A program made the position numbers and the translations under genes. The notes under the pieces are model-generated. The model did not search any database and was not told where the DNA came from. It saw nothing but the letters and a program-made list of their open reading frames with translations. A DNA stretch of 64,000 nucleotides from Escherichia phage anhysbys: the sequence record NC_052656.1; one strand, written 5' to 3'. This document shows positions 8,583 to 42,265 of this stretch, piece after piece (position 1 is the stretch's first letter; each line of letters begins with the position of its first letter).

Positions 8583-8587
8583 TAAAG

Positions 8588-8612
8588 ATGCCCCACAAGG
8601 GGCATTTCTTAT
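8588..8612 (+). terminator. rho-independent terminator-like hairpin
   Basis: GATGCCCC-ACAA-GGGGCATT then TCTTAT, after ATPase gene. Confidence 0.5.
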
Positions 8613-8623
8613 AGGATGAAATC

Positions 8624-22950: not shown

Positions 22951-23101
22951 AGTCTGCTTGTCATGAGCGGGATTAGTTGACATTGTTCCGTCATATGATG
23001 AGGTTGCCAACCTATTGATAAATAAGTGTTTGTGTGATTTATAATCAAGTGGCCCACCTTGTCGCTATGTTGGCATGAGCCTTGCATAAGTCATTGAATA
23101 C

Positions 23102-23130
23102 GAATGATAATTATTCTCATTCGCATGATA
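23102..23130 (+). promoter_or_regulatory. Fur-box-like site
   Basis: GAATGATAATTATTCTCATTCGCATGATA. Confidence 0.4.
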
Positions 23131-23462
23131 TTTGGGAATTGTCGCTGCGTGGACCTGACGGCCCGAAAATTCGCGTTAAGCACTTCTTACGTATGCGCCA
23201 TGATTTTTGCCATATGATATTGATTCTATTAGATATTCTTGCCATGATTGCCATGAAACAGGGTGTCCCGAAATAATCTCTCCCCGTAGATATTTTGGGT
23301 TACTTTTTATACAAGAGTGGGGTGTCAAAAATAATCGATATATATGGGATAATTGATAGGAATCCCCTATGGTAATTCGATTGTAATTGCCGAAGATTGA
23401 TCGTATGATGTTGGTGATTGATGATTGCCATGAAAGATGGCTAACGATGAGAGGAGATTGTC

Positions 23463-23807
23463 ATGCAAGAGAGTAAAAATGTTCCGTTAAGTAGTTTACG
23501 TCTAATGAAGTTTTACAAAGCTTGGCTTGCTGGTGAGGTAGAAGGTCACACAACGAGTGGTTTGTGCATATGTTTGATTAAGTATGTGGAGGGAACATAT
23601 CCTGATGAACTGTTACCTCGTCTACAACAAGAGATGAAATCCCAGTTTATTGGTGCAGGACTAGATTACAATTTTCCGTTTAATGAAGGTGGTTATGAGG
23701 AATACACCTTCGAACATAAAAAACATATTTGCCATAAAAACAAACATCGTATACAATGGGTGTTAGATAGAATTCAGGATTATGAAGGAGAGAAAAATGA
23801 CAAATAA
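23463..23807 (+). CDS. FY-WL/GLC/WVKDR family protein, paralog 1
   Basis: ORF track 114 aa; family motifs FYKAWL, SGLCICL, QFIGAGLDYNFPFN, RIQWVLDRI. Confidence 0.65.
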   Translation: MQESKNVPLSSLRLMKFYKAWLAGEVEGHTTSGLCICLIKYVEGTYPDELLPRLQQEMKSQFIGAGLDYNFPFNEGGYEEYTFEHKKHICHKNKHRIQWVLDRIQDYEGEKNDK

Positions 23808-24165
23808 TATTCCGTTGAGCAGTGCAGCATTGCTTCGCTTCTACAAAGCATGGATTGCCAACTATCCTGCAATGAATCGCACAACGAGTGGCTTATGTGG
23901 TTGTCTGGTAGATTATGTAGATGATTTTGTTGGTGAGACAACTAGAGAAGAAGATAGAAGATGGCGGGATAGTTTGTTAGACCGTTTGAAATATGAAATG
24001 AGGAAACAATTTACATGTGCAGGGCTGGACTACAATCTTCCGTTCAATGCAGATTGCATGGATTACCTTTCAGAGTGTATAAACTTGGCGTGTCATACCA
24101 ACACGTTACGTCTTCAATGGGTGAAAGATCGCATTGAAGATGCAAATAATGCTTGCATTGAATAA
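23797..24165 (+). CDS. FY-WL/GLC/WVKDR family protein, paralog 2
   Basis: Track frame; start refined to MTNNIPLSS; FYKAWI, SGLCGCL, LDYNLPFN, RLQWVKDRI. Confidence 0.65.
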   Translation: MTNNIPLSSAALLRFYKAWIANYPAMNRTTSGLCGCLVDYVDDFVGETTREEDRRWRDSLLDRLKYEMRKQFTCAGLDYNLPFNADCMDYLSECINLACHTNTLRLQWVKDRIEDANNACIE

Positions 24166-24223
24166 AAATGTCTGTATAGTGGTTTGCATACCGCGCATAA
24201 CAAATAGCCAATGAGGAGATGAA

Positions 24224-24445
24224 ATGAAGAATTTGAAAACTGTCACAATGTTCTTGACTGATCCTACACGTGTGCAAGCACTGGCTAAAGCCAGCCGTGT
24301 AGCTGTAGAATTCCAAAACTTTAAGCCGTCCGTTGTGACAGGCAGTGAAACGTGTGTTATCGATTTCATTAACGAATACTTCCGAGGGAATCCGGTTAGT
24401 CGTTACTTCATTAAAAACTTGAAGGATGTGGAGCAGGTACAATGA
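24224..24445 (+). CDS. hypothetical protein
   Basis: ORF track 73 aa. Confidence 0.5.
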   Translation: MKNLKTVTMFLTDPTRVQALAKASRVAVEFQNFKPSVVTGSETCVIDFINEYFRGNPVSRYFIKNLKDVEQVQ

Positions 24446-24681
24446 TCCTTCCAGTAGATAATGAGATAGCTATGAATGTTCTGGATACAGAATACTTCTA
24501 CAATCACTACTCTGAGACAGAGTGGATGAACACGCAAACTCTAAAAGAGAAGACGCAAGCTTTGATTAAGTGTGATCGCTACTTGCAACGTGCCGAGGAA
24601 GATAATATAACATTAGCATCTCGCGCACGACGCGTTTCCATTTTCAATAAAATGTTAGCATTATGGGGAGGTAGAAAATGA
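24442..24681 (+). CDS. hypothetical protein
   Basis: ORF track 79 aa. Confidence 0.5.
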   Translation: MILPVDNEIAMNVLDTEYFYNHYSETEWMNTQTLKEKTQALIKCDRYLQRAEEDNITLASRARRVSIFNKMLALWGGRK

Positions 24682-25139
24682 GACAATTCACTATACTGGC
24701 AGCTTATGTGCAATGTGTTCACGATTATGTTAGTGCTCATACAGGTGTGCTGGAAGTTACCAGTAAAATTGAAGGTAATATGGGTACTGTCTGTGTGCAA
24801 CATACTTTATCCAATGTGCCGTTTAAAGTGTTCACTGTTGTAGCTGCCGATTACAATCGCGTAGATGTGCGTTTCTTGGATCGTAATTTTCGTAACGCAC
24901 TAGATAATATCGAAGATTATCTTCCCGTGAAACCTTTGTCATTTCCACCGAGTCGTGCAAATAATGTAGTGACAAATCTTAATGAAAGAAATGTGGCTAT
25001 GCACAAAAAAGTCCGTCAATTGAAAATGCTGATGGAAATGCAAGAAGAGATTGAAAAAGAACTAAAAGAAGATTTTGGTATGCTTCCAAAAGACGCTTTG
25101 AAATGGTATGATGAACTAGGAGGAGAAAGCTATGAATAA
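24678..25139 (+). CDS. hypothetical protein
   Basis: ORF track 153 aa. Confidence 0.55.
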   Translation: MRQFTILAAYVQCVHDYVSAHTGVLEVTSKIEGNMGTVCVQHTLSNVPFKVFTVVAADYNRVDVRFLDRNFRNALDNIEDYLPVKPLSFPPSRANNVVTNLNERNVAMHKKVRQLKMLMEMQEEIEKELKEDFGMLPKDALKWYDELGGESYE

Positions 25140-25326
25140 AGGAACTACTGTATATTTAGTGACTAAGAATACCCCAGGTTGGAGCCAATGCAGCACTGTT
25201 CCTTACAAGATCTGTGCAACATTAGAACTAGCACAACGTGCAGAAGCAGAAGTTGATGCTATGCGATACAGCTACGGTGAAATCATTCCTTTTACTCTTG
25301 AACAAGAAGGAGCACATCATGTTTAA
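25132..25326 (+). CDS. hypothetical protein
   Basis: ORF track 64 aa. Confidence 0.5.
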   Translation: MNKGTTVYLVTKNTPGWSQCSTVPYKICATLELAQRAEAEVDAMRYSYGEIIPFTLEQEGAHHV

Positions 25327-25774
25327 AGTAGGGTTTACTTATAAATTCAAAAGTGTTGTTGACCAAGGAGCTATGGCAACACAGGACAAAGCAAATATTG
25401 CTGTTTGCCAAGCAATTGGAAACGAAGTTTTCAAAGTTATGAATACAGATGATAAGTATGGTCATGTTCTTGAGTTTTATATCAATGGTACCCTCTATAC
25501 AGCAGGTGTTACCCCAGGGTTTAATTCGTATACTTATTTGATTGATAACGAAGAATTTAAATATTTTGAAGAAGTAAAGGAGGAAACAATGGGTAAAGCA
25601 GAACCACAATGGCATGTTGTGATCGTAGGATCAGAGTGTGTAGATGTTTGTTCTAGTTTTGAAAAAGCTTCTGAAGTCGCTACAAAAGCTAAGAAGGATT
25701 ATCCGTCGAAGACGGTTGAGATTTACGCTCGTGTTGCAGTAGCAAACGCCACAATCACTATTGATAAGGAGTAA
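25319..25774 (+). CDS. hypothetical protein (MFK-family tandem paralog 1)
   Basis: Track frame; start refined to MFKVGFTYKFKS; C-terminal region similar to next gene. Confidence 0.55.
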   Translation: MFKVGFTYKFKSVVDQGAMATQDKANIAVCQAIGNEVFKVMNTDDKYGHVLEFYINGTLYTAGVTPGFNSYTYLIDNEEFKYFEEVKEETMGKAEPQWHVVIVGSECVDVCSSFEKASEVATKAKKDYPSKTVEIYARVAVANATITIDKE

Positions 25775-25779
25775 AGCCA

Positions 25780-26235
25780 ATGTTCAAAGAAGGTCATGTC
25801 TACCGTTTCCAGGATGAAGATTATATGCGATTATATTCTACCTTTGATAACAGTATGGCTGCTATCATTGGAGAGAATTTTTTCGAGGTGTTGAGCACTG
25901 ATGCAAATGGTAATATCTTGTCAATTGTTGTGATAGGGAGAGACGGTATTATCACTGCTAGTGATGGGGATCGTTACATAATCAATTCTGCTCATATAGA
26001 TTATTTTGTTGACGGTGGTATTCGTGGTAGTCGTGGAAAACCCCAAGAAGAACCTGTTGATACAACAAAAGAAGAGTGGTATGTTGTAATGACTGATGAC
26101 ACCTGTATTTCTGGATTTGAAAGTTATGAAGAAGCTTTGAAAGAAGCAGCAGAGCATAAAATGGCTAATCCTACAGAAGAGGTTGAAGTTTATAAACGTT
26201 TGGTTGTTGCTACCATCGGCGTATCTTTTGTTTAA
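25780..26235 (+). CDS. hypothetical protein (MFK-family tandem paralog 2)
   Basis: ORF track 151 aa; MFKEGHVYRFQD; C-terminal ..W(H/Y)VV..(S/D)...(F/S)..(A/E)...A....(D/N)P...VE(I/V)Y.R. Confidence 0.55.
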   Translation: MFKEGHVYRFQDEDYMRLYSTFDNSMAAIIGENFFEVLSTDANGNILSIVVIGRDGIITASDGDRYIINSAHIDYFVDGGIRGSRGKPQEEPVDTTKEEWYVVMTDDTCISGFESYEEALKEAAEHKMANPTEEVEVYKRLVVATIGVSFV

Positions 26236-26247
26236 AAGGGGAATGTT

Positions 26248-26685
26248 ATGTTTAAAGTTAATGCTGTTTACTGTTTCAAAAGTAAAGCTGCCTGTGAAGC
26301 TTTCTCTATGATCTCTGATGAAAATTTCAAAATGGCAGCTTTGATTGAAGGGTCTTGTTTCCGCGTCGAAGATGTTAGTGAATCAGGTTCTGTTTGCTCA
26401 TTGACTTTATTGGACAGCGGGGATATTATTGAAGCTGGACAGTATCCGTTCAGAAGTTGGGAGATATTGTTAGCTCGCGGAGAGCGTAACTTTTTTATGT
26501 GCGTGTCTGCGGGGGAAGTTGTGAAAGAAACTAAGGATGTTTCTGTTTACAATTCTGAATTTATAAGTTATAGTGAGTATCAACATCTGGAAGGCATTGT
26601 TGGTCACTTGTTATCTCTGATTGACATTGAATGTGACTTGCCTGAATCATTGAAAGAAGAGTTGAAAGCATTAGATCTGCTGTAA
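26248..26685 (+). CDS. hypothetical protein (MFK-family tandem paralog 3)
   Basis: ORF track 145 aa; MFKVNAVYCFKS. Confidence 0.55.
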   Translation: MFKVNAVYCFKSKAACEAFSMISDENFKMAALIEGSCFRVEDVSESGSVCSLTLLDSGDIIEAGQYPFRSWEILLARGERNFFMCVSAGEVVKETKDVSVYNSEFISYSEYQHLEGIVGHLLSLIDIECDLPESLKEELKALDLL

Positions 26686-26712
26686 TGTTTGACACAACGA
26701 AAGGAGAATAAG

Positions 26713-27012
26713 ATGAATCTGACTGAACAGTTACGCCGTATTGCAAAAGAAGCTTCCTTCAACTTCCCTGTTGAAGAAGTGATCGAGACATGTTTTGCTG
26801 AAGCACGAGCGGGAAACTCTTCAAGAAATTTCACACCATCTGATTTTGGTTTGGATAATTCTCCTACTCATCCAGGGGAAATCTACAATCAGGTGAAGTG
26901 GATGGATGAAGCAGTAGCAATTCTTCGTGAGCGTGGGCTTATTGTTTATAAAGAAATGGATCTGAACGGGGCATACGAGTGGATCACTATTGATTGGTCC
27001 GAGGTGAAATGA
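26713..27012 (+). CDS. hypothetical protein
   Basis: Track frame; start refined to MNLTEQLRR after AAAGGAG. Confidence 0.55.
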   Translation: MNLTEQLRRIAKEASFNFPVEEVIETCFAEARAGNSSRNFTPSDFGLDNSPTHPGEIYNQVKWMDEAVAILRERGLIVYKEMDLNGAYEWITIDWSEVK

Positions 27013-27245
27013 TGAAAGGTAACAAGATGAAAGTTAATCAAGTGCCGAGCGCATACACTTTGTGGCTTGCGCGAGCGTTACACCAGACGATCAAAAACCC
27101 TAAGAAGCCAATGAAGAGCGGGAAGAAGTTTATGTCTAAGGGCAAAACAACCTTTGGCTTCACTCGTATGTCTGTTAAGATGAAAAGACTGGGGTACAAG
27201 CCAAACTACGCTCGTTACCCTTCTGAATACAACTGGTTTGACTAA
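27009..27245 (+). CDS. hypothetical basic protein
   Basis: Track frame; Lys/Arg-rich. Confidence 0.5.
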   Translation: MMKGNKMKVNQVPSAYTLWLARALHQTIKNPKKPMKSGKKFMSKGKTTFGFTRMSVKMKRLGYKPNYARYPSEYNWFD

Positions 27246-27257
27246 AAGGAGAAAGCA

Positions 27258-27731
27258 ATGGCAGGTTTGAAACTGGAGATGTTGACAAAGCAAGAATTTG
27301 TTCCCGAACACGGTGAAACTTACATTGCTTTCTTGATTAGTGATTTTTATGGGGATTTAGAGTATGTTGAACTGGAATGTGAGTTTCACTACCAAATGAT
27401 TGACGCAGAAACTGGTCATTGTCTGGGTACGTCTGCGGTGTATAATGGTGATAATGGCATTCCTTTTCATACCCCAATGAGGTACGAAGCGAAAAACCGA
27501 TTCAAACTTCTCACAGAAGAAGAAAAAGAGACATATAAATATCACGAAGAGGAGGATCAACGCTTCTGGTGGGAGAAAACTTGGTTCCTGTCTGATCGCC
27601 GTAATCTTCAGATTCACCCAGAAGAACTGGATGAAATGTCTATTGGCATTATGAAGAAGAAAGACTTCATGTTCCAGGTGAGAGAAGCTAATAAGCTCCG
27701 TATTGCAATTAAAGAGGAGAACAAAACATGA
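27258..27731 (+). CDS. hypothetical protein
   Basis: ORF track 157 aa; AAGGAG RBS. Confidence 0.55.
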   Translation: MAGLKLEMLTKQEFVPEHGETYIAFLISDFYGDLEYVELECEFHYQMIDAETGHCLGTSAVYNGDNGIPFHTPMRYEAKNRFKLLTEEEKETYKYHEEEDQRFWWEKTWFLSDRRNLQIHPEELDEMSIGIMKKKDFMFQVREANKLRIAIKEENKT

Positions 27732-28012
27732 AAACATCTATTCGCGTAAAACATGATCCAAACAGCAGTTACCCATACGCGGATGTTGAACGTCATGAAG
27801 GAGACTATTACACCATAAAACGTAAAGTCCCAACTGATACAGGGTTTAACTTTGATGTTATTGCGCTGGATGATCAAGGTGTTGATAATCTGGTGAACGC
27901 ATTACTCGCATTGAAGGAAGTACGACATGAAAATCAGACTAAAGGTAAAGTGGCTTTCGATTCTTGTGATCGTTTAGCCGAAGAGATTGCCGAATGGCGT
28001 GACACTAACTAA
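27728..28012 (+). CDS. hypothetical protein
   Basis: ORF track 94 aa. Confidence 0.55.
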   Translation: MKTSIRVKHDPNSSYPYADVERHEGDYYTIKRKVPTDTGFNFDVIALDDQGVDNLVNALLALKEVRHENQTKGKVAFDSCDRLAEEIAEWRDTN

Positions 28013-28027
28013 AACAGGAGAAAGATT

Positions 28028-28204
28028 ATGGCTACTTTTCAACAACTGAAAGATGTTTCACGTTTAGTAAGAAAAATCCGAGAAGCAGACGCTGCTGTGC
28101 GGAATGCACTAACGCCAGCAGAGCGTGAAGATCTTGAAGAGGAGGTGAAAACAGCCGAGAATGCTTTTGCTGTGTATCTTGCAACACTGCATACAGGAGG
28201 TTAA
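28028..28204 (+). CDS. small hypothetical protein (~58 aa)
   Basis: Own translation MATFQQLKDVSRLVRKIREADAAVRNALTPAERED...; AGGAGAAAG RBS; fills gap. Confidence 0.4.
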   Translation: MATFQQLKDVSRLVRKIREADAAVRNALTPAEREDLEEEVKTAENAFAVYLATLHTGG

Positions 28205-28519
28205 ATGTCAGAGGAACTTAAAGAATTTTATCAGGCATATCATAACTGGCTATTAGCTGGTGCTCCAGATAATAATCCTTTCTGGCATGATAAAGGATTA
28301 TGTAGTTGTCTCTACCTTTGGACTGGTGGTTACGATGATCTAAATTATGAAATGCAAATGCAATTTCGAGAAGCAGGGTTGTCTGAAGAATACCCGTTTG
28401 ATGACGGAGACTGGTTTAAATATGATTTTGCACAAAGAAACGGGCTATTGCATTTGAATGCTGCCCGTATAAAATGGGTAAAAGATCATGCTACACAGGA
28501 GGATGTGCAATGCCAATAG
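28205..28519 (+). CDS. FY-WL/GLC/WVKDR family protein, paralog 3
   Basis: ORF track 104 aa; FYQAYHNWLLAGAP, KGLCSCL, RIKWVKDH. Confidence 0.65.
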   Translation: MSEELKEFYQAYHNWLLAGAPDNNPFWHDKGLCSCLYLWTGGYDDLNYEMQMQFREAGLSEEYPFDDGDWFKYDFAQRNGLLHLNAARIKWVKDHATQEDVQCQ

Positions 28520-28710
28520 TGTTTAGTTTCTTGGTAATTGTTATGGTTGTTCTTTTCGCAGCATGGCTTTGGGATTTTGACCCAGGAGCAGCGCAGCAAA
28601 GAGCTACAGACTGGAAAGAACAATGTATTGTGCTCAAACATGAACGAAATGCGGAGAAATTTCTTGACCTGGAGTGTGATCGCCTTGTAAGATACAAGCA
28701 AGATAAATAA
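28510..28710 (+). CDS. small membrane protein
   Basis: Track frame; start refined to MPIVFSFLVIVMVVLFAAWLW. Confidence 0.45.
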   Translation: MPIVFSFLVIVMVVLFAAWLWDFDPGAAQQRATDWKEQCIVLKHERNAEKFLDLECDRLVRYKQDK

Positions 28711-28724
28711 CTTTGAGGTGCAAA

Positions 28725-28913
28725 ATGGTAATTGAGATTAAACTTGAATATGCTGGCGCTGTTGCTCTGATCGCACAAATGCTTGGAGCAAAGATTGAAG
28801 AAGTGTATATCAATGCCTGGAGCGTAGAGATTGATGTTCCTATGGACAACATTGCTAATCGCTTGCTGGTGGCAGAGTGTGAACGCACCAACATAATCTA
28901 CAAAGGAGCATAA
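28725..28913 (+). CDS. hypothetical protein
   Basis: Track frame; start refined to MVIEIKLEY. Confidence 0.45.
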   Translation: MVIEIKLEYAGAVALIAQMLGAKIEEVYINAWSVEIDVPMDNIANRLLVAECERTNIIYKGA

Positions 28914-28914
28914 T

Positions 28915-29136
28915 ATGAAAATTAGAGTTTGTGATGTATTGGGTTATGTTGGTTTTGAGAATGTTCAGATTCCTTTTGTTGTTGAAGCACATCTTGTTAG
29001 CGATGACATGACAACATTCTTTGTTACGATAGAAGAAATGTCCAAAGTTGAGGGATGGGAGTGGTTTGAAGAAGATGTTTGGGAAGGTTGTGATTACGTA
29101 TTTTTCTCTGATGAAGTGAATGTTCTTTCGGAGTAG
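28915..29136 (+). CDS. hypothetical acidic protein
   Basis: ORF track 73 aa. Confidence 0.5.
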   Translation: MKIRVCDVLGYVGFENVQIPFVVEAHLVSDDMTTFFVTIEEMSKVEGWEWFEEDVWEGCDYVFFSDEVNVLSE

Positions 29137-29138
29137 GT

Positions 29139-29345
29139 ATGTCTTGTTTTACAAAAGCAGTATCCATATGTAAGAAACAGTATGAAAGTGACTACGGAAT
29201 ATTTAATATTCCAGTGGATCATACGGAGTATTGTTCATGTGGTGGCAGAATGAAGAAAACAGTGATTTATGCGGATAATGGAGATGAACTTGTTCCGGTT
29301 ATGGTTTGCAAAGCTTGTCATTCTGTTAAAACATTAAAAGCGTAA
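29139..29345 (+). CDS. small zinc-ribbon protein
   Basis: ORF track 68 aa; C..C ... CSCGG ... CKAC. Confidence 0.5.
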   Translation: MSCFTKAVSICKKQYESDYGIFNIPVDHTEYCSCGGRMKKTVIYADNGDELVPVMVCKACHSVKTLKA

Positions 29346-29440
29346 GGAGTCGGGACACCCGACGATTGGAGCTAAAAATTTTGCGTACAACCCTTTCCGC
29401 CCAACAGGGGCGCGTCGGGTAAATAAAGAGGAGAGTTTAT

Positions 29441-29839
29441 ATGAAAAAGATCATCGTAGGTTTATTGTTACTCATTGCGTCACTTGGAACAGCAAATGCG
29501 TCTCAAGTTTATGAGTGTGTGTCAGATGTGGTTGTTAAAAATCTGAAAGGTGAAGTGATTTCTGGTCCTAAGAAAATGGCTTCTGTTGTCATTAATAAAG
29601 ATAACTCCTTTATCCTTAAAAATTCAGGTGGTGCTTTGATGAGTGGCATTCTGCAATACACAGGAGAAAAAAGTAAAGATGGTAGTGCTATGTACGGTTC
29701 GCAACAGTTTATTGGCACTACTGAAGTTGTGATGATGCGCACAGAGTATCGAGACACTTTAGCTTGGTTTGCATTTCTAAAAAATGATAAAACAATAACG
29801 AATGTTCTTACTCTAGAAGCTGATTGTACGCAACGATAA
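29441..29839 (+). CDS. putative secreted protein
   Basis: ORF track 132 aa; signal peptide MKKIIVGLLLLIASLGTANA; AGGAGAG RBS. Confidence 0.6.
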   Translation: MKKIIVGLLLLIASLGTANASQVYECVSDVVVKNLKGEVISGPKKMASVVINKDNSFILKNSGGALMSGILQYTGEKSKDGSAMYGSQQFIGTTEVVMMRTEYRDTLAWFAFLKNDKTITNVLTLEADCTQR

Positions 29840-29849
29840 GGGGGTATTT

Positions 29850-30296
29850 ATGACTAAAGTGCGACATTATGCTGTAAACTGCAATGATGTTTGGCGTTTG
29901 TGTCCTGATGATCCGACAGAAGGCACATTTGTAAAATATGAGGATTATAAAGAGTTATCGGATGCTGTGATCGCATTGTTAACTGATATCCGTTCACGTT
30001 ATCCAGGACAAGATTTCACTTGCCCTCACATCAAACTTCTTGCTTGTCTGGTAGAAGATGAGAAAGAAGTGGAAGATGGCTTCAAGCGTGTAGAGTATCA
30101 AGGTGAAACTTTAGATGTTCCTGAATTTGTTAATTATATTGCAACAGACTCGGATGGTGATCGTTATGGTTACAGCCATAAGCCAGAGATTCCTGATTGG
30201 ATTCCCGCTTGGCGTATTTCCGTTAGTACCGGAGACTATATCTTCCTTGGCGTAGGTAGTAGTAAGGATTGGCGTTTCTCTTTGACAGAGGTTTAA
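29850..30296 (+). CDS. hypothetical protein
   Basis: ORF track 148 aa. Confidence 0.55.
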   Translation: MTKVRHYAVNCNDVWRLCPDDPTEGTFVKYEDYKELSDAVIALLTDIRSRYPGQDFTCPHIKLLACLVEDEKEVEDGFKRVEYQGETLDVPEFVNYIATDSDGDRYGYSHKPEIPDWIPAWRISVSTGDYIFLGVGSSKDWRFSLTEV

Positions 30297-30300
30297 TAAT

Positions 30301-30564
30301 ATGAAAGAGACATTGCCAGCAGCATACCGTTTGAATGATGAGCGTATTTGGGAGTGGACCGACGTTTCTTGTTTTTACCCTGAGATAGTTCAATATTGGC
30401 GAGCGAAAGGGTGTGTTGTAGTTATCAACCCTTGTGGACCAGTAGATGAAGATTGCTTGTATCTCGATGGAAAGTGGCACAGTTATTGTCGCTGGCCTTT
30501 TGAGTGGATGTGTAAAGAAGATCTCCCAGAGGGTTGGGAGTATCCAAAAGCAAATAGGAGATAA
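30301..30564 (+). CDS. hypothetical protein
   Basis: ORF track 87 aa. Confidence 0.5.
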   Translation: MKETLPAAYRLNDERIWEWTDVSCFYPEIVQYWRAKGCVVVINPCGPVDEDCLYLDGKWHSYCRWPFEWMCKEDLPEGWEYPKANRR

Positions 30565-30565
30565 T

Positions 30566-30928
30566 ATGTCTAAAGATTTTGTTGAAGTATTTGTCAAAGA
30601 TGAAGAAACTGGTTTAGGCACGGGTTTCATTTGTGAAGAAACTTTTAAGCGTGAACAAGAAAAAGCCATTCTTATGCACCGCTATGATCATGCATTAGAA
30701 CAATGGAAAAATGCAGAACAAAAATGCAAAAACCTTTACGCAGAAAATAGAAAACTACAAGATCAAATGGAGTTGTTAGCTATCAGTTTACGATCTCTCA
30801 TTTTGGCTGTAGAAGATGGTTTTAAAAATCCAGATGGTTTTCCTGTGAGCGATATTGAACATGATTTGTATCTTGCTCGTGGTGCTTACTTTTATGTTAA
30901 ACAGAAGCCTGTAGAAGGAGAGAAATGA
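30566..30928 (+). CDS. hypothetical protein
   Basis: Track frame 30446-30928; start refined to MSKDFVEVF after AGGAGA. Confidence 0.55.
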   Translation: MSKDFVEVFVKDEETGLGTGFICEETFKREQEKAILMHRYDHALEQWKNAEQKCKNLYAENRKLQDQMELLAISLRSLILAVEDGFKNPDGFPVSDIEHDLYLARGAYFYVKQKPVEGEK

Positions 30929-31125
30929 TGGAAGAAAAACTGGAACGTATTATCGAGTTAGCCATGTCTATTGGCTACGACGATTGTTTTCTCCAAACTA
31001 TTGGAGAAACACAGAACGATTACGACTCTTGGGTGAAAGAGTTGGAAGAACTCAAAACTTCCTTGATTGCTGACTTTGCTTACGCAGAGAATAAAGCAGA
31101 TCGTTACAACTATCTGTGTCGATAA
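30925..31125 (+). CDS. hypothetical protein
   Basis: ORF track 66 aa. Confidence 0.5.
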   Translation: MMEEKLERIIELAMSIGYDDCFLQTIGETQNDYDSWVKELEELKTSLIADFAYAENKADRYNYLCR

Positions 31126-31187
31126 GCCTTGACATTTATTTTATGTATGGTATACATACATTATCAACGTGAGAAAGGTGGTGTAAT

Positions 31188-31460
31188 ATGAATAAAGATC
31201 GGTTTCTTTCTTTAGTCGCGGAAGCGCCTTTTGATGTTCTTGGGGTGAGATTATGGAAAGACAGAAACTATGGGTTAGATGTTCAAACATATTCTCTTTG
31301 GTTGGTTGGGGAGCACAGCTTAGATGAAAGCTTGTGCATGGGTAGGGATTCTCGTTCCCTTTGTTTAAAGTTTAGAAGCTTAGAACGCGCAAACAAAGAG
31401 CAAGAAAAACTAACGAGGTGGCTAAATGAAAACAAGCGCAGGGTTGATGGAGTTTTATAA
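31188..31460 (+). CDS. hypothetical protein
   Basis: ORF track 90 aa; TTGACA promoter-like upstream. Confidence 0.5.
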   Translation: MNKDRFLSLVAEAPFDVLGVRLWKDRNYGLDVQTYSLWLVGEHSLDESLCMGRDSRSLCLKFRSLERANKEQEKLTRWLNENKRRVDGVL

Positions 31461-31752
31461 AATTTATCTAGCATGGATTGATGTTGGTGCTCCTGATGGT
31501 AAACCTTTTCGGCGAGATTGCGGTTTGTGTGCCAACTTGTTCGATTATGTGCACGCAGATGGCTACAATCTCCTTATAACAACCTTGTCAGACGAAATGC
31601 ACTCACAGTTCTACTACAAAGGGTTGAGTCAACAACTCCCTTTCAATGAGAACTACGATGCATATGTCTTAGAATCAGATGCAGAGGTATGTCACCTGAA
31701 CGTGGACAGGATTAATTGGGTAAGAGATCGTATTGCAGAGGAGGATGAATAA
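31426..31752 (+). CDS. FY-WL/GLC/WVKDR family protein, paralog 4
   Basis: ORF track 108 aa; FYKIYLAWIDVGAPDGKPF, CGLCANL, RINWVRDRI. Confidence 0.65.
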   Translation: MKTSAGLMEFYKIYLAWIDVGAPDGKPFRRDCGLCANLFDYVHADGYNLLITTLSDEMHSQFYYKGLSQQLPFNENYDAYVLESDAEVCHLNVDRINWVRDRIAEEDE

Positions 31753-31979
31753 TGTCGGATTATAACTGGTATGAACTTGAGGCTGTTTGTCAGTTTTATG
31801 ACTCAATAGTTCTGCGTGATCCAATCTGTCAAGAATTGAGTCGCCGTGCAAGTGCATTGGCAATCAATGTTAAAGTGCACGATTGGAACGCAGATCTGGA
31901 AAAAGAATTGGAATTCCTTTTGGAAACAACCTGTGTCTTCCATAAAGTGTTCCCTGAATGGTTTGAGATGGAGGAATAA
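31752..31979 (+). CDS. hypothetical protein
   Basis: ORF track 75 aa. Confidence 0.5.
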   Translation: MSDYNWYELEAVCQFYDSIVLRDPICQELSRRASALAINVKVHDWNADLEKELEFLLETTCVFHKVFPEWFEMEE

Positions 31980-31981
31980 GC

Positions 31982-32194
31982 ATGTGGATTGTCCGTCTTA
32001 AGTATGATGGCAAGTTTCCGTGGGAGAAAGATGTTTGTGCCTGTGATTCAGCAGCACATGCCAAAGCAGCGGGTCAGGCAGTAGTTGACATGTATAACAA
32101 CACCCCCTTTGATCCAGAAATGGCAGGTGTTACAATGAGCATGTTCACTTACTATTCTTTTGAGGTTTACTATCACGAAGGAGAGTGGAAATGA
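31982..32194 (+). CDS. hypothetical protein
   Basis: ORF track 70 aa. Confidence 0.5.
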   Translation: MWIVRLKYDGKFPWEKDVCACDSAAHAKAAGQAVVDMYNNTPFDPEMAGVTMSMFTYYSFEVYYHEGEWK

Positions 32195-32511
32195 GCGAAG
32201 AGCTATTAACATTTTACCGCACGTATTTGGCATGGTTGGAAGCTGGTGCTCCTGAAGGTGAACCGTTCACCCGTTGCACAGGTTTGTGCACGAACCTCTA
32301 TGATTTTTACGACATAGGAGAAAGCGAACGATACGAACCTGTACTGGATGAAATGCATGAGCAGTTCTACCTCAAAGGTTTGGTTATGGTGTTGCCTTTC
32401 AACAGTAATTTTGGAAAGTACACCTTAGAAGCGGAAAAAGGCCGTTGTCATTTGAATGTGGATCGTGTGAACTGGGTAAAAGAACGTGTAGCAGAAGAAA
32501 TAATTGGTTGA
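32191..32511 (+). CDS. FY-WL/GLC/WVKDR family protein, paralog 5
   Basis: Track frame; FYRTYLAWLEAGAPEGEPF, TGLCTNL, RVNWVKERV; closest to paralog 4. Confidence 0.65.
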   Translation: MSEELLTFYRTYLAWLEAGAPEGEPFTRCTGLCTNLYDFYDIGESERYEPVLDEMHEQFYLKGLVMVLPFNSNFGKYTLEAEKGRCHLNVDRVNWVKERVAEEIIG

Positions 32512-32565
32512 CAGAAGGATCTGTCTTTGTCATAATCGTCTCATCGAAACAGAGAGGAGAAAATC

Positions 32566-32979
32566 ATGAAAAAGTTTATTTGCACCCGTTCCACTAACAG
32601 TGATATCCTTGTAGGTAAAGTTATCAAAGGAGAACTCTTCCATGCAAACGGTAAGAAATATATTCTGCTGAAAGATTCTTTCAACGGGGAATATCCGCGC
32701 TGCACTTTCTTCAATTACAATACTCCATTTGCTTTAGAAGGAGATGCTTGGGACTGGGCTGAACTTCATCCTTGTTGTGAGGAAGAAGAATCTATGTTCT
32801 TAGGTTTAAACGTTTACCGTGTAGATTACACCATGTGCGGAGCGGAATATTCTGTTCGCGTAGAAGCCGAATCCAAACTACAAGCACCTTTCAAGGCGGG
32901 ATTGACTTTGGGTCATTGTTTGGCAAACATTGAAGATGTTGTGATCCAAAGAGTTGTTTTAGAGAAAGAGGCTATTTGA
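32566..32979 (+). CDS. hypothetical protein
   Basis: ORF track 137 aa; GAGAGGAG RBS. Confidence 0.55.
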   Translation: MKKFICTRSTNSDILVGKVIKGELFHANGKKYILLKDSFNGEYPRCTFFNYNTPFALEGDAWDWAELHPCCEEEESMFLGLNVYRVDYTMCGAEYSVRVEAESKLQAPFKAGLTLGHCLANIEDVVIQRVVLEKEAI

Positions 32980-33031
32980 CAGAAGACGGTACAATATTTA
33001 AAATATAAAGATTAACCACAAAGGAGAGAAT

Positions 33032-33331
33032 ATGCAAGTTGAAGACCTGATCCACATTCTGAATAAAGCTAAAGAGAAGGGTGCTATCAAAGACTGGAAA
33101 CGTGAAACAAGTGAAGATTTATCTCATTGTTGCCGAGAATTTTACATCGAAGGTATTGCTGACGATCATTATACTATTGAATGGTATATCAACTTAATGA
33201 CTCTTAAGCACGGTTCATTTGAGGTTTGGTTTGATGATATTGATGTAAATGGTTTCCATCCTGGCTATAAAATCGCTATGCAGTTATCTTATCGTAGAGA
33301 AGTTGTAGCACATTTGGGTTTACATAACTAA
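33032..33331 (+). CDS. hypothetical protein
   Basis: ORF track 99 aa. Confidence 0.55.
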   Translation: MQVEDLIHILNKAKEKGAIKDWKRETSEDLSHCCREFYIEGIADDHYTIEWYINLMTLKHGSFEVWFDDIDVNGFHPGYKIAMQLSYRREVVAHLGLHN

Positions 33332-33341
33332 GGAGAAAAGA

Positions 33342-33665
33342 ATGCAAGCAGTTGTTAACGAAGCTATTATGAACTTATCCTTCTTGTTAGCTGGTTTAGG
33401 AGGTGTTCTCATAGGTTTGGCTCTTATCTGGTGTATTCGTCGATTAATCGGGTACCGACAAAAAGGTGTTTCATGTTTTGTATCTTACAATTTTACAACT
33501 GCTTACAGCAATGAGGTTGGATCTGGCAATGCTCAAGCATTTTTACCAACATATCCTCCTACGGTGGAAGATATTCGAAACTTGGAAGTAGAACTTATGG
33601 GACTAGGTGATAACTATACATCTCTAGTTATTCAAAATATTTTTCGACTAAAACAGGGGGCGTGA
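33342..33665 (+). CDS. membrane protein
   Basis: ORF track 107 aa; hydrophobic LSFLLAGLGGVLIGLALIWCI. Confidence 0.5.
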   Translation: MQAVVNEAIMNLSFLLAGLGGVLIGLALIWCIRRLIGYRQKGVSCFVSYNFTTAYSNEVGSGNAQAFLPTYPPTVEDIRNLEVELMGLGDNYTSLVIQNIFRLKQGA

Positions 33666-33878
33666 ATGAAGGTATATTACCCTCATCCGTTTGATCCTAA
33701 AAACAAAGCCGTAATTCTTCGTCAGTGGCAACGGGTTTGTCGTACTAAATGTCCAATCAATAGCCCACACAATGTAGACAAGGACTATCTTGGGACATTT
33801 GTTGAATACACTTACATAGACAAAAACAAGCGTAAACAACATGTCGAGGAATACTGCTTAAGAGTAGAATGGCTGTAA
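33666..33878 (+). CDS. hypothetical protein
   Basis: ORF track 70 aa. Confidence 0.5.
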   Translation: MKVYYPHPFDPKNKAVILRQWQRVCRTKCPINSPHNVDKDYLGTFVEYTYIDKNKRKQHVEEYCLRVEWL

Positions 33879-33948
33879 ATAATAAATACCTTGACAAGTG
33901 TTTATTCATTTTGTAAAGTGAGAATACAGCAATGGTTTAGGAGTGGTT

Positions 33949-34620
33949 ATGAAAAAGTTTGTTGTTTACAGTCGTCTTTCTAAACAGAAAAAAGGCGAGG
34001 CACAATATGGTATGGAGAGCCAAGAGAACGATATCCGTTACTTCTTAGACTCTGTGCCTGATGCGGAAGTTATTGGTCAATTTTCTGAATACTATTCGGG
34101 TAAGGGCGATTGGAAGCAACGTAAGGAACTGGTTAAAGCGGTTGAAATGTGTAAAGCTACCGGAGCAACTTTATTGGTAGCTAAAGTTGACCGCTTGGGT
34201 CGTAACAACGCCTCCGTAGCAACTCTTCTAGAAATGATTGATGTTAAGATAGCCATTATGCCAGATGCAGATAAAATGGTTATACAGCTTCTGTCTGTTC
34301 TGGCTGAACAAGAGGTTAGAGGTATTGCTGATCGTATTAAAAAGGGTCTTGCTGTAGCAAAAAGCAAAGGTGTTTTATTAGGCAGTGCTAATCCTAAAAC
34401 TGCCGCTGCACGTAGAAAAGGAAAAATGGAATACAACTCTGTTAAAGCAGACGCTTTTGCAGAGACATTTCGTGAACGTTTGGAGATCCTGAGAGATTTA
34501 AATACACCTTACAAAACTATTGCTGAAAAATTCAATAGTAAGAAAATAGCAACAGCACGTGGTGGTAAATGGGATGCTAAGACTGTTTCTCGTTTGTGTG
34601 CCAGACTGAACATTAAATAG
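33949..34620 (+). CDS. serine recombinase (resolvase/invertase family)
   Basis: N-terminal VYSRLS (catalytic Ser context), LLVAKVDRLGRN, E.R.I..RIKKGL..AK; C-terminal ARGGKWDAKTVSRL; own TTGACA promoter upstream. Confidence 0.7.
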   Translation: MKKFVVYSRLSKQKKGEAQYGMESQENDIRYFLDSVPDAEVIGQFSEYYSGKGDWKQRKELVKAVEMCKATGATLLVAKVDRLGRNNASVATLLEMIDVKIAIMPDADKMVIQLLSVLAEQEVRGIADRIKKGLAVAKSKGVLLGSANPKTAAARRKGKMEYNSVKADAFAETFRERLEILRDLNTPYKTIAEKFNSKKIATARGGKWDAKTVSRLCARLNIK

Positions 34621-34628
34621 GAGAGGAT

Positions 34629-35051
34629 ATGAAACAAGAAAATGAATCTGTAGATCACTTAATCATGCTGTCAGCCCTTTTTGCAGGATGGGACGTATTT
34701 TTTGAAAATTTGTTCAATTCTGCTACAGATGGTTCCGATTTTATGCGCCAATTTAAACGACGAACTGTTGAGGACTATACCTTCTATTCAGGTCTGATTG
34801 AAAAAGGTTACGAAGATACAAATACAACACTCACCATTAAAGTTTTAGATGTGATGTTTAGTGTTATAGATGCTATCGACGAAAGTCTTCCGATCCTAGA
34901 CAATTGTAATACGAAAGCCTATGTTTACAAAATAGCTCGTGCTTATGTGTCTGCAAACAGTTGTCTTCTTTCCACCCAGATTGCCGTGAACAATCTTGCC
35001 AACTTGTTTGATGAAGGAGAAACTTTTTATGACAATCGATTTGAAGTGTAA
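34629..35051 (+). CDS. hypothetical protein
   Basis: ORF track 140 aa. Confidence 0.55.
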   Translation: MKQENESVDHLIMLSALFAGWDVFFENLFNSATDGSDFMRQFKRRTVEDYTFYSGLIEKGYEDTNTTLTIKVLDVMFSVIDAIDESLPILDNCNTKAYVYKIARAYVSANSCLLSTQIAVNNLANLFDEGETFYDNRFEV

Positions 35052-35394
35052 GAGGATTCTTTTAGATTTCTATAATAATTGGTTAGAACACCTCCGTCTC
35101 TTTCCAAGAGAAAGTGGTTACGCTGATGTTGGCTTATGCCGAGGTCTGCGTATGTATATAAGCGATGAATTTCGGGCAGAGCATTCTTTAGCATATTCTG
35201 TTTATGGTATGCAATTAGCCAGTTTTGAAAACGCTGGCTTAGATACAACTTTCCCATTTAACACAGCAAAATCTTTTGAGCAAGAGTGTAAGGAAAAACG
35301 TTGTATGTTTAATGAAAAACGTGTACAGTGGGTTAAGGATCGAGTTAAACAACTGGAACAAGAGTTGGATTTCTTTTATGACGAGGCAGAATAA
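35029..35394 (+). CDS. FY-WL/GLC/WVKDR family protein, paralog 6
   Basis: Track frame; LLDFYNNWL, VGLCRGL, FENAGLDTTFPFN, RVQWVKDRV. Confidence 0.6.
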   Translation: MTIDLKCKRILLDFYNNWLEHLRLFPRESGYADVGLCRGLRMYISDEFRAEHSLAYSVYGMQLASFENAGLDTTFPFNTAKSFEQECKEKRCMFNEKRVQWVKDRVKQLEQELDFFYDEAE

Positions 35395-35666
35395 TGGATA
35401 GACAAACCTTAAAAACAATGGCAGATGCTACTAATTCTCCGTACTTTGAAAAAGTAAGTAAATTGGTAGCTCAAGCCGCAGAGGAAGGATATTATAACAT
35501 AAACATCCACAACCCAAGTCTTATACTAGAAATGCCAAGTGATAAAAAGATACAAGAGAGTATCTGTGAAGGTATTGTTAGTTACTGGCGCGAGCGTGGG
35601 TGTGGTGCAAACATGGCTTTAGACAGTGCAAACATTGTAAGATATATAAATATTTCTTGGGGGTGA
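35394..35666 (+). CDS. hypothetical protein
   Basis: ORF track 90 aa. Confidence 0.5.
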   Translation: MDRQTLKTMADATNSPYFEKVSKLVAQAAEEGYYNINIHNPSLILEMPSDKKIQESICEGIVSYWRERGCGANMALDSANIVRYINISWG

Positions 35667-35670
35667 TTTT

Positions 35671-36282
35671 ATGATTCAATGCACTCATATCCAAATTACT
35701 TGGAGAGATGAACTTTACCATTTGGGACAATTTACTGTAGGGGAAACATACCCTATCATTAAACATAATCCTAACATCGCAAACTTTGACAGGATGGTTC
35801 TTGTTGAGGACGATCTAGGTCAAACTTATTCTTTAGATCTAAAATATCCGTTTTCTTACGGCTACGATTGGATCGTTACTTTTGAAGACGCGGAGGAAAA
35901 TAAAACAATGAACGAAAAAAATTCTTGGTATTATCGTTGCGAACTGCCGCCAGTAGGTGAAAAGGTTATCTTTGTTCCCGATTTGGAAAGATATTCTTGG
36001 GATAGTTCTTATTCTGTTCCTAAAGAAGGCACCGAAGTTGAAGTTATTGCACATCGCACAACTTCGCATGGTAACGACGTAGCAGTTGTTTTCTGGGATG
36101 ATGAAGGTGCTGCTTGTGCAGGTGGCTTTGTTGCAGGTAATTTTGAACCCCTGCCAGATCCTCTGAAGGAGGCAATTTTAGGCGTAGCTTCTTTTGGACT
36201 CTCTTACACGTCTGCACAAGAGATTGTAGAAGGTATTTTAAACGGTACCGTTCCAAACGAAATTTTCAAACAGATTAAATAA
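35671..36282 (+). CDS. hypothetical protein
   Basis: ORF track 203 aa; hairpin/terminator downstream. Confidence 0.6.
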   Translation: MIQCTHIQITWRDELYHLGQFTVGETYPIIKHNPNIANFDRMVLVEDDLGQTYSLDLKYPFSYGYDWIVTFEDAEENKTMNEKNSWYYRCELPPVGEKVIFVPDLERYSWDSSYSVPKEGTEVEVIAHRTTSHGNDVAVVFWDDEGAACAGGFVAGNFEPLPDPLKEAILGVASFGLSYTSAQEIVEGILNGTVPNEIFKQIK

Positions 36283-36287
36283 CAGTT

Positions 36288-36312
36288 GCACCCCGTTCTT
36301 CGGGGTGTTATT
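36288..36312 (+). terminator. terminator-like hairpin
   Basis: CACCCCG-TTCTT-CGGGGTG + TTATTGTAT. Confidence 0.45.
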
Positions 36313-36333
36313 GTATACGTAAAGGAGGAGATA

Positions 36334-36672
36334 ATGTATTACACTGAAGACTACATACTGTATAACTTTTTTAAAGGCTGGTTGGAATGGGCGGAAAAAG
36401 CTCCTGTTGGAGATTGTGTTTTTCCTTGGGACTCTCGTCAAGGTTTGTGTCGTTGTTTGGAAGACTGGCTTATAACCACAAGCTACAACTCAGAAACTAA
36501 GAAATCTACATCACAAAGGTTAAAAATTTTATTTGAAGAAGATGGTTTAGATCCAATTTATCCTTTCGGTGAGGAAAGTTTCCACAATGGTCTTTTCCTT
36601 GGCACTCAACATTATGATAAAGATCGTGTAGATTGGGTAAAAGAAAAGGTAGCACAGTATGAATGGGGTTAA
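36334..36672 (+). CDS. FY-WL/GLC/WVKDR family protein, paralog 7
   Basis: Track frame; start refined after AAAGGAGGAG; FFKGWLEWAEKAP, QGLCRCL, RVDWVKEKV. Confidence 0.6.
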   Translation: MYYTEDYILYNFFKGWLEWAEKAPVGDCVFPWDSRQGLCRCLEDWLITTSYNSETKKSTSQRLKILFEEDGLDPIYPFGEESFHNGLFLGTQHYDKDRVDWVKEKVAQYEWG

Positions 36673-36862
36673 GAATTATCACCGCTGGTTACAAAGCTAT
36701 CTTAAGAAATGTGAACTTGGTGTTCCAGGTTATACTTACGACACAGACGAGATCCTTGATGAAATGGAAGTTTGGTTTAAAGAACCTCGTGAGCTATTGG
36801 CAAATATTCTAATGGCTTGGGATGGTACGGCACAAAGCATCGAAGGGGGTAGAAATGAGTAA
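36659..36862 (+). CDS. hypothetical protein
   Basis: ORF track 67 aa. Confidence 0.45.
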   Translation: MNGVKNYHRWLQSYLKKCELGVPGYTYDTDEILDEMEVWFKEPRELLANILMAWDGTAQSIEGGRNE

Positions 36863-36989
36863 GAAATTGTTTAATATTCGTGAGAATCGTGATGGATCGT
36901 TCTCTGTAGTCAATGAATTTAACGTTTCGGTTGGGACTTTTATTACTAAACGTCAAGCAGAACAAGTAAGAGATACTTTAAACAAGTAA
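36855..36989 (+). CDS. small hypothetical protein (~44 aa)
   Basis: Own translation MSKKLFNIRENRDGSFSVVNEFNVSVGTFITKRQAEQVRDTLNK. Confidence 0.35.
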   Translation: MSKKLFNIRENRDGSFSVVNEFNVSVGTFITKRQAEQVRDTLNK

Positions 36990-37006
36990 ATTTTTAAGGG
37001 GGACTT

Positions 37007-41449: not shown

Positions 41450-42265
41450 TTATTTGTTTAAGTGGTCTTCGACCATTTTAATGAAACCTTCATTGCTGAA
41501 GGCTGTTGCAGCTTTTTCTCGGTAAACAAAAACTCCACGATCTTCATAGAGAAGTGTTTCTTCGTAATTAACTCCAGGGTTAACTACAACCATTTTTGTA
41601 CCCATACTAAGTGCAGGAAATAATTCCCAATTAAAATTGATAATTTGGTTTGAACATCCTACTACTACAACCAAATCTTGCATGGTCAAAGTATCGAACA
41701 AGTGAGCCATATCTGCATACAAAGGTGCAGCCTCACCAAAAAATACAACATTAGGCTTCACCCAGTTATAATCATCTATGTTTATACTATTGTAACCAAT
41801 ATCTACCAGTGTTTTGTAATCTCCAGGATGCATACGGTAAACTACTTCAGGAAGATAGCCGTGTACGTGAATAACAGAATCTCTGTCTACACCTGCTCGC
41901 TCTAGTAGATCATCAACGTTTGTTGTCAAGTTTACTATTTGGTTAGGATATTCCTTAAACCACTTTGCTATTTGAATATGTGCAGCATTAGGTTGTACAT
42001 CTTTAAGCTCAACACGTCTTTTGTTATAAAATTCGTGTGTTTTGGCATACAAATCCATACCGTTCTCGTCTACACCACCGACCACTGGAAGATCTGGAGA
42101 TGTTCTAACACGATAACCTGCTTGGAAAGCTCCAATATCGCAGACCTCTTCTAAATCATATTCTTCCCATAAAGCACGACCACTATCTGTGTCTGTTCTA
42201 AATGTTCGAATCCCACTGTCTGCACTTAAACCTGCACCGCTTACAAAAATCACTCGTCTTGGCAT
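41450..42265 (-). CDS. SIR2-family NAD-dependent protein
   Basis: N-terminal VIFVSGAGLSADSGIRTFR resembles sirtuin GAG(I/L)S..GIP.FR NAD-binding motif; 271 aa. Confidence 0.7.
   Translation of the reverse strand: MPRRVIFVSGAGLSADSGIRTFRTDTDSGRALWEEYDLEEVCDIGAFQAGYRVRTSPDLPVVGGVDENGMDLYAKTHEFYNKRRVELKDVQPNAAHIQIAKWFKEYPNQIVNLTTNVDDLLERAGVDRDSVIHVHGYLPEVVYRMHPGDYKTLVDIGYNSINIDDYNWVKPNVVFFGEAAPLYADMAHLFDTLTMQDLVVVVGCSNQIINFNWELFPALSMGTKMVVVNPGVNYEETLLYEDRGVFVYREKAATAFSNEGFIKMVEDHLNK

Follow-up and report, generated by a model that had tools for sequence, protein, structure and literature searches.

Seven N4 gp3-like paralogues in a small-gene block of Escherichia phage anhysbys

Why does a phage keep several divergent copies of one small protein within a single gene block, and to which family do these proteins belong? 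The question is raised by a 64,000-nucleotide stretch of Escherichia phage anhysbys (NC_052656.1; the whole stretch is henceforth called the window), in which a preliminary description had proposed a family of seven paralogous open reading frames (ORFs) between positions 23463 and 36672, without recognising the family. The window belongs to an E. coli Phapecoctavirus (Stephanstirmvirinae, genomes about 150 kb). Here we present evidence that the seven ORFs encode relatives of coliphage N4 gp3, catalogued as PHROG 2510, and we weigh what such proteins might do during infection.

The seven copies and their family

The first two genes of the family overlap: copy 1 (23463..23807, + strand, 114 amino acids (aa); phrog_2510 expectation value (E) 5.6e-26), with a GAGGAG Shine-Dalgarno (SD) sequence on its 5' side, shares 11 nucleotides (nt) at its 3' end with the 5' start of copy 2 (23797..24165, +, 122 aa; E 4.9e-25), which carries an insertion of ~15 aa between the predicted helices 2 and 3. 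They are followed by copy 3 (28205..28519, +, 104 aa; E 8e-29), by copy 4 (31426..31752, +, 108 aa; E 6.1e-31), which lies 440 nt upstream of copy 5 (32191..32511, +, 106 aa; E 1e-30), by the divergent copy 6 (35029..35394, +, 121 aa; E 2.2e-26), where Met replaces the family His, and by copy 7 (36334..36672, +, 112 aa). SD sequences such as AAGGAG or AAAGGAGG precede all seven starts of the preliminary description by 5-10 nt, and that of copy 7, AAAGGAGG, is strong. For this last copy the upstream TTG at 36286 is disfavoured as a start, and the ATG at 36334 is favoured, because a terminator-like hairpin (36288-36308) lies between the two.

That the seven ORFs form one paralogous family was borne out by alignment, by profile searches of the window and by leave-one-out tests. 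A MAFFT alignment of the seven holds 14 invariant columns (L14, F17, G33, L34, C35, L38, F62, G66, L67, P72, F73, R96, W99 and V100). When the profile of the seven copies was run against 678 six-frame ORFs of the window, only these seven matched (E 1e-36 to 1e-47), the next ORF lying at E>2. Indeed, a profile of six copies recovered the omitted copy every time (E 4e-16 to 2e-34; for example 1.9e-28 for copy 1 and 3.9e-19 for copy 6), with no other window ORF matching even at E<=10. By BLASTP, 21 of 21 copy pairs were significant, the weakest being copies 2 and 7 (E 6e-4). Pairwise identity ranges from 21 to 50%: the closest pairs, at 50% each, are the physically adjacent copies 1 and 2 and copies 4 and 5, while copy 7 is the most divergent (21-30% identity to the others). 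Judged from its sequence, copy 2 is a tandem duplicate of copy 1. The motifs first listed for the family hold under alignment, some of them in a narrower form: 'GAP' is found in 3/7 copies, the Cys of 'C(H/M)' in 5/7 and the His in 6/7; copies 3 and 7 depart from 'PFN', with PFD and PFG respectively; and in place of 'WVK' copy 1 has WVL and copy 4 has WVR.

The family turned out to be catalogued already. All seven copies match phrog_2510 ('unknown function') over profile positions ~5-113 with E 5.6e-26 to 6.1e-31, and more weakly phrog_6418, phrog_27059 and phrog_2176, each also of 'unknown function'. These four PHROG profiles span 219-231 positions, whereas the window genes correspond to the bare domain; the greater length of the profiles stems from those members that possess additional modules or two domains. 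The pointer to N4 came from the annotation of Achromobacter phage JWAlpha, whose annotators had linked phAPEC8_0044 with N4 gp3. N4 gp3 (YP_950481, 104 aa) is matched by a profile built from the window copies only (E 7.6e-19) and by a broader family profile (E 1.7e-22), and itself matches phrog_2510 (E 7.8e-24). It resembles the window proteins in PHROG, in size, in its GLC, PFN and CHLN..R..W motifs and in being encoded in the earliest-transcribed part of its genome, and differs in that N4 has a single copy and the window seven. We conclude from these profile matches that the seven copies are members of the N4 gp3 / PHROG 2510 family. A family left unrecognised in the preliminary description thus has a catalogue entry and a member in a classic coliphage, with its function absent from the libraries and literature that we searched.

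How far does the family extend? An exhaustive profile search covering 1.84 billion representatives, with results counted as clusters at 50% identity, returned 1,951 representatives at E<=1e-3, 1,044 of them with E<=1e-10. The majority measure 95-120 aa, some chains hold two or three domains and a few have other extensions. They come from phages, from one phage-plasmid and from prophages of Proteobacteria; a tblastn search found family matches in 242 phage records, and the sole hit of a plasmid search was the phage-plasmid. The partners to which the domain is fused gave no clue to function: an N-terminal transmembrane segment, a zinc-ribbon-like tail or a DUF551-associated module at the C-terminus, and N-terminal extensions matching no family. 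Natural two-domain fusions also occur in metagenomic phage contigs, at 8312-9780 of L003 and at 606-1286 of L004; in the former, the first domain (8312-9049) lacks the G-L-C motif, is partly matched and may be a degenerate, pseudo-domain-like copy.

Against Pfam and NCBIfam the seven copies gave no credible hit, and in a Pfam scan of 127 diverse members at E<=10 no family recurred in a second member. PADLOC-DB contained no match at E<=1 to any copy, and a word-index protein search with the 127 sequences retrieved matches carrying only 'hypothetical protein' names. Literature searches with gp3, its accession, phAPEC8_0044, phrog_2510 and peptide strings led to genome-annotation tables only, and neither the CRISPRi-ART paper nor an accessory-gene screen had anything on the function of the family. 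As no function of gp3 was published in the literature searched, homology to N4 gp3 transfers no mechanism. The genes have already been deposited as hypothetical proteins in >100 phage genomes; they are new members of a catalogued orphan family, and the family itself is no new discovery. In the literature searched, four aspects appear undescribed: how far the family extends, its repeated occurrence in several copies and as tandem fusions, its early placement across unrelated phages and its want of a solved relative.

Genomic setting, selection and copy number

The 14-kb region that holds the seven genes is 96-98% identical to many Escherichia Phapecoctavirus phages, such as ETEC-TG and Mt1B1_P17, and the counterparts of all these genes in Phapecoctavirus records are annotated 'hypothetical protein'. 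The genes lie within a block of small, tightly packed + strand genes (about 23.4-41 kb), in which neighbours often overlap by a few bases. A convergent - strand block downstream encodes Sir2, PhoH, ribonucleotide reductase and thymidylate synthase, and the window contains no tRNA genes.

The position of relatives elsewhere is informative. In N4 and JWAlpha, the family gene sits in the left-end early region, between the genes for gp1/gp2 and those for RNA polymerase II (RNAPII), and N4 gp3 is the third gene of the early region transcribed by the injected virion RNA polymerase. A review of N4 transcription assigns roles among the early genes only to gp1, gp2, gp15 and gp16. In the Klebsiella phage GP-4 (Autographiviridae), the annotated host promoter and the first terminator enclose two copies, and a gene for S-adenosylmethionine (SAM) hydrolase lies ~1 kb downstream of them; the homologue of Burkholderia podovirus JG068 is gene 5, upstream of the primase gene; and an E. 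coli lambdoid prophage encodes a member with the C-terminal module shared with DUF551 genes, at a delayed-early position in the nin-like region that separates the replication genes from RusA/Q. Members are therefore placed early or delayed-early in phages of several unrelated architectures. We looked for a conserved neighbour gene family across these phage groups and found none, so the domain appears to act alone. An accessory role in host takeover or counter-defence, to which the preliminary description had drawn a parallel, fits this setting, as judged from a small same-strand gene block, early-region homologues, the SAM hydrolase of GP-4 and copy numbers of 5-9.

That description had suggested diversifying selection. 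To gauge selection we computed pooled Nei-Gojobori ratios of non-synonymous to synonymous change (dN/dS) between the window and seven other Phapecoctavirus loci. Orthologues of copies 1 to 7 gave 0.03, 0.22, 0.00, 0.43, 0.27, 0.02 and 0.11, copy 4 being the highest, in the same range as real neighbouring genes (0.01-0.37) and apart from spurious overlapping frames (0.8-0.9). Every copy is thus a constrained gene under purifying selection, without a gene-wide diversifying signal. The proposed comparison between paralogues is unreadable because synonymous sites are saturated (proportion of synonymous differences, 0.59-0.88), a saturation which implies that the duplications are old. Copy 3 is the most conserved among related phages, with 99-100% aa identity in 6 loci despite 54 synonymous changes, and is nearer to outside representatives (47-49%) than to any copy of its own genome (41%).

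The number of copies is fluid. Five copies are present in vB_Ec-G1, six each in SF1-1, Ro121lw and ZCKP1, seven in this window, ETEC-TG and ESCO13, and nine in phiWec181. Orthologues of copy 1 occur in only 2/7 related loci; copy 5 is absent from vB_Ec-G1, and ESCO13 carries a divergent copy elsewhere in the block. Copies are therefore gained and lost between close relatives (5-9 per locus), as befits accessory genes. Multiplicity recurs beyond the genus: Vequintavirus and phi92-like phages have 2-4 family copies each, two structural matches each come from PhiW-14, BcepSaruman, CHA_P1 and PAO1_Ab04 in the BFVD database (see below), and an unrelated 104-kb phage contig packs six domains into four adjacent genes within 2.5 kb.

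Predicted fold, conserved residues and candidate functions

A major question is what activity such a domain could have. Structure prediction had been proposed as a check on the family, and in two independent AlphaFold2 models copies 4 and 7 share one five-helix architecture (copy 4, run with a 29-sequence alignment: predicted local distance difference test, pLDDT, 93.8 and predicted template modelling score, pTM, 0.86; copy 7: pLDDT 95.5 and pTM 0.89). Foldseek against BFVD retrieved 16 phage proteins at E<=1e-3 (template modelling (TM) scores 0.77-0.89), all uncharacterised, whose phages infect Proteobacteria: Rhizobium, Achromobacter, Burkholderia, Delftia, Escherichia, Pectobacterium, Klebsiella, Shigella, Erwinia and Pseudomonas. 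Against the PDB, profile searches with 7 and with 127 sequences returned nothing (best E 0.47 and 0.9), and the best Foldseek match had E 2.4 and a TM score of 0.24; the structurally characterised anti-defence proteins in the PDB (Ocr, ArdA, Acb2, Tad1/2, Gad1, Acr families and others) showed no similarity in sequence or fold. The domain, phage-restricted, ~100 aa long, soluble, acidic and all-alpha, has a predicted fold without relative among solved structures; the same fold may occur among unsolved proteins.

In copy 4 numbering, the alignment consensuses assign F10-Y11 together with W17 to helix 1, G33-L34-C35 to the beginning of helix 2, F62 to helix 3 and P72-F73 to a loop, while H90-x-N92-x-x-R95-x-x-W98-V99 leads into helix 5. 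The G, L, C, F, P, F, R, W and V residues are invariant in the seven copies and kept in 95-100% of 202-272 domains, the sets used for all conservation counts. Given in family-profile positions, the Cys of G-L-C is retained in 98-99% (266/272), Pro-Phe in ~100%, the Arg in 98% (266/272) and Trp-Val in 90-94%; Asn N96 stands at 88-89% with a further 7-8% Asp (Asn/Asp 260/272), His H94 at 77-78% (211/272; otherwise Tyr, Met or Trp) and the second Cys, C93, at 40-45% (121/272), while helix 3 has a Glu and a Gln at ~79% each and helix 4 a Glu at 72%. With this pattern the residues may either line a pocket for catalysis or ligand binding or, as a buried polar network, stabilise a scaffold rich in loops.

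On sequence and context, our preferred though tentative reading is that the seven ORFs are expressed, selectively maintained N4 gp3 / PHROG 2510 paralogues whose products act as early cytoplasmic effectors binding host proteins. As their gene position suggests, synthesis of the proteins would fall within the opening minutes of infection. In the host cytoplasm they would be stand-alone effectors, most likely stoichiometric binders (inhibitors or decoys) of components of host immunity or of housekeeping factors. The conserved residues would hold a loop-rich scaffold in shape, and specificity for the target would reside in two variable segments, namely the helix 2-3 connector and the stretch made up of helix 4 and the loop that precedes helix 5; multiple copies and tandem-domain fusions would broaden the range of targets. 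Amplified counter-defence genes have precedents in T4 tifA and in the poxvirus K3L 'accordions'.

Several observations weigh against this reading. No experiment on any family member was found in the literature searched, and the role is drawn from context alone. Diversifying selection is not seen among orthologues in the seven other Phapecoctavirus loci, and a promoter scan found 69 sites versus 55 +/- 7.5 in shuffled sequence, barely above expectation. Moreover, the near-invariance of polar residues (Cys and Arg 266/272 each, Asn/Asp 260/272, His 211/272) is more typical of a catalytic or ligand site than of a diversifying binder surface.

The last point lends some weight to the main rival explanation, which we consider rather unlikely: that the domain is an enzyme or small-molecule binder of new fold, whose active site or pocket would be built from the invariant Cys that opens helix 2, Arg95, His90, Asn92 and the Glu/Gln of helices 3-4. 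Such a protein might modify host proteins in a thiol-dependent way or, as a sponge, soak up immune nucleotide signals, with paralogues differing in substrate or ligand, as the substrates of the T4 ADP-ribosyltransferase paralogues Alt, ModA and ModB differ. Across ~200-270 domains, conservation is strong (Cys 99%, Arg 98%, Pro-Phe ~100%, Asn 89%, His 77%, Glu 72-79%, Gln 79%), and Cys and Arg are found in 7/7 copies. The Cys sits at a helix N-terminus in both AlphaFold models and is never Ala or Ser at appreciable frequency, replacements that would be expected if only a small side chain counted. However, the His is Y, M or W in about 20% of domains, copy 6 included, no enzyme-like fold was matched, and 7-9 copies per genome would be unusual for an enzyme or a sponge. 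Furthermore, the helix-3 residues E, M, Q and F (i, i+1, i+4, i+5) share a face with core hydrophobics, where a buried structural polar network would fit equally well. In its most far-reaching form, to which we give a similarly low probability, the N4 gp3-like domain would be an unrecognised fold built around a cysteine-centred site or pocket and deployed by virulent phages of Proteobacteria, singly, in arrays or as tandem fusions, right at the start of infection, with each paralogue neutralising a different host immune pathway or signal.

A role internal to the phage, in which the proteins would be transcription or replication regulators or DNA- or RNA-binding factors of the early programme, seems improbable. 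The proximity of N4 gp3 to gp1 and gp2, the cofactors of N4 RNAPII, speaks for it, but no paper found gives gp3 a part in N4 transcription, where gp1, gp2, gp15 and gp16 are named, and copy number differs between near-identical phages, unlike that of a core regulator. The seven proteins are also acidic, with isoelectric points of 4.5-6.2 and net charges of -2 to -10, which argues against nucleic-acid binding.

Least probable among the functional alternatives, and in our estimate very unlikely, is the metal (Zn) site that the preliminary description had envisaged at the conserved Cys and His positions and that would make these small metalloproteins. The idea draws on a single invariant Cys, on the frequent pairing of Cys with His (CH.N) and on conserved Glu and Asn residues; an intersubunit metal held by Cys and His from each of two subunits is conceivable, and tandem two-domain fusions exist. 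Three or four conserved ligands are nevertheless not to be found: the first Cys (266/272) is the single invariant ligand, the second Cys (121/272) is missing from copies 3 and 7, and the His (211/272) from copy 6, which leaves too few ligands for a conserved intramolecular Zn site. In addition, no zinc-binding Pfam family recurs among the 127 members, and AlphaFold produces a confident helical bundle without metal.

Two known classes were tried and rejected: papain-like and other Cys-His thiol hydrolases have an alpha+beta fold with a helix-N-terminal Cys, a beta-strand His and an invariant Cys-His-Asn/Asp triad that the family lacks, and HEPN RNases carry an R-x4-6-H motif that is absent here, where the order is H-x-N-x-x-R with His before Arg (and no HEPN profile turned up in the Pfam scans of the seven copies and of 127 members).

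How does the preferred reading, that of early effectors binding host proteins, compare with characterised anti-defence systems? T7 Ocr and ArdA are likewise early, small, acidic and cytoplasmic, Ocr being all-helical, and the copies of GP-4 lie in the same early operon as its SAM hydrolase. Unlike Ocr and ArdA, the family has no sequence or structural similarity to any PDB entry, and its charge is far below that of a DNA mimic. In the BASEL study, Vequintavirinae and their relatives, a grouping taken there to include phi92-like phages and the phAPEC8 cluster, were exceptionally sensitive to restriction-modification; as Vequintavirus and phi92-like phages carry family copies, a broad anti-restriction role of the family is unlikely. 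A second comparison is Atd1, an anti-TIR factor reported from Phapecoctavirus and Justusliebigvirus, which is a MazG-like (p)ppGpp pyrophosphatase. It comes from the same phage genera and falls in the same general class of accessory counter-defence genes, but is a different gene, as no MazG match was present in the seven copies or the 127 members.

Other features of the block and implications of the family

Several further features of the window deserve mention. Two near-consensus sigma-70 promoter-like sites lie directly 3' of copy 5, one at 32508-32536 (+; TTGACA-17-CATAAT with an extended TG) and one at 32976-33004 (+; TTGACA-17-TAAAAT), and a hairpin followed by a T-run (32510-32525) overlaps the first. 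Together these elements suggest a transcription-unit boundary within the block.

Between copies 2 and 3 we found a second, unrelated paralogous family (25238-26685, +), consisting of the tandem ORFs 25238/25256-25774, 25780-26235 and 26248-26685. All three begin MFK(V/E)(G/N).(V/T)Y.F, and the first two are 26% identical over 156 aa (E 4e-13). Their counterparts in vB_Ec-G1 are annotated 'goF mRNA metabolism modulator', a label that belongs to this neighbouring family and does not identify the gp3-like one.

The phage, which is regarded as virulent, carries a serine recombinase gene (33943-34620, +) placed centrally in the small-gene block. The gene is annotated as a DNA invertase or resolvase, its relative in a related contig matches Pfam Resolvase, and the protein is 100% identical in six related phages (dN/dS 0.14). 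At the junction of the + strand small-gene block and the - strand nucleotide-metabolism block lies a gene for a Sir2/CobB-like NAD-dependent deacylase (41450-42265, -; phrog_2162, E 1e-103), annotated cobB in phiWec181.

Two small ORFs of the block differ from their surroundings. The 132-aa ORF at 29441-29839 (+) has a signal-peptide-like N-terminus, MKKIIVGLLLLIASLGTANA, and its product is likely secreted or periplasmic, amid genes for cytoplasmic proteins; the label 'RNA ligase' on its orthologue in Shigella phage SF1-1 looks like a mis-annotation. The annotated 66-aa ORF at 30925-31125 (+) has a dN/dS of about 0.9 (8 synonymous versus 30 non-synonymous changes in 7 comparisons), far above its neighbours, and is either relaxed, positively selected or no real gene.

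Finally, records MG065650, MG065645, MG065639 and OP562383, which match positions 23000-37000 of the window, are labelled 'Campylobacter phage B15/A145/A150' and 'Acinetobacter phage vB_AbaM_ABPW7'. Those of B15 and ABPW7 are about 97% identical to the present Phapecoctavirus region, and A145 and A150 match the phi92-like Justusliebigvirus group. Judged by this match to E. coli phage sequence, the host labels look doubtful.

What does the family mean for phage biology? The present result is a well-delimited orphan family, and no new mechanism: at least 1,951 clusters at 50% identity, confined to phages, with no Pfam model, solved structure or assigned function. It bears signs of phage-host conflict in its early gene position, its recurrent multi-copy expansion, its tandem fusions and its nearly invariant set of Cys, Arg, Asn and His residues. 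If true, the cysteine-centred, immune-neutralising reading would amount to a large new class of counter-defence effectors, deployed in arrays of up to nine copies. Since the family includes a gene of the classic model phage N4, genetics is possible and the entry point tractable. The function of N4 gp3 or of any copy, once worked out, would annotate thousands of phage genes together, and such work would also tell whether multi-copy arrays of small early proteins generally broaden counter-defence.

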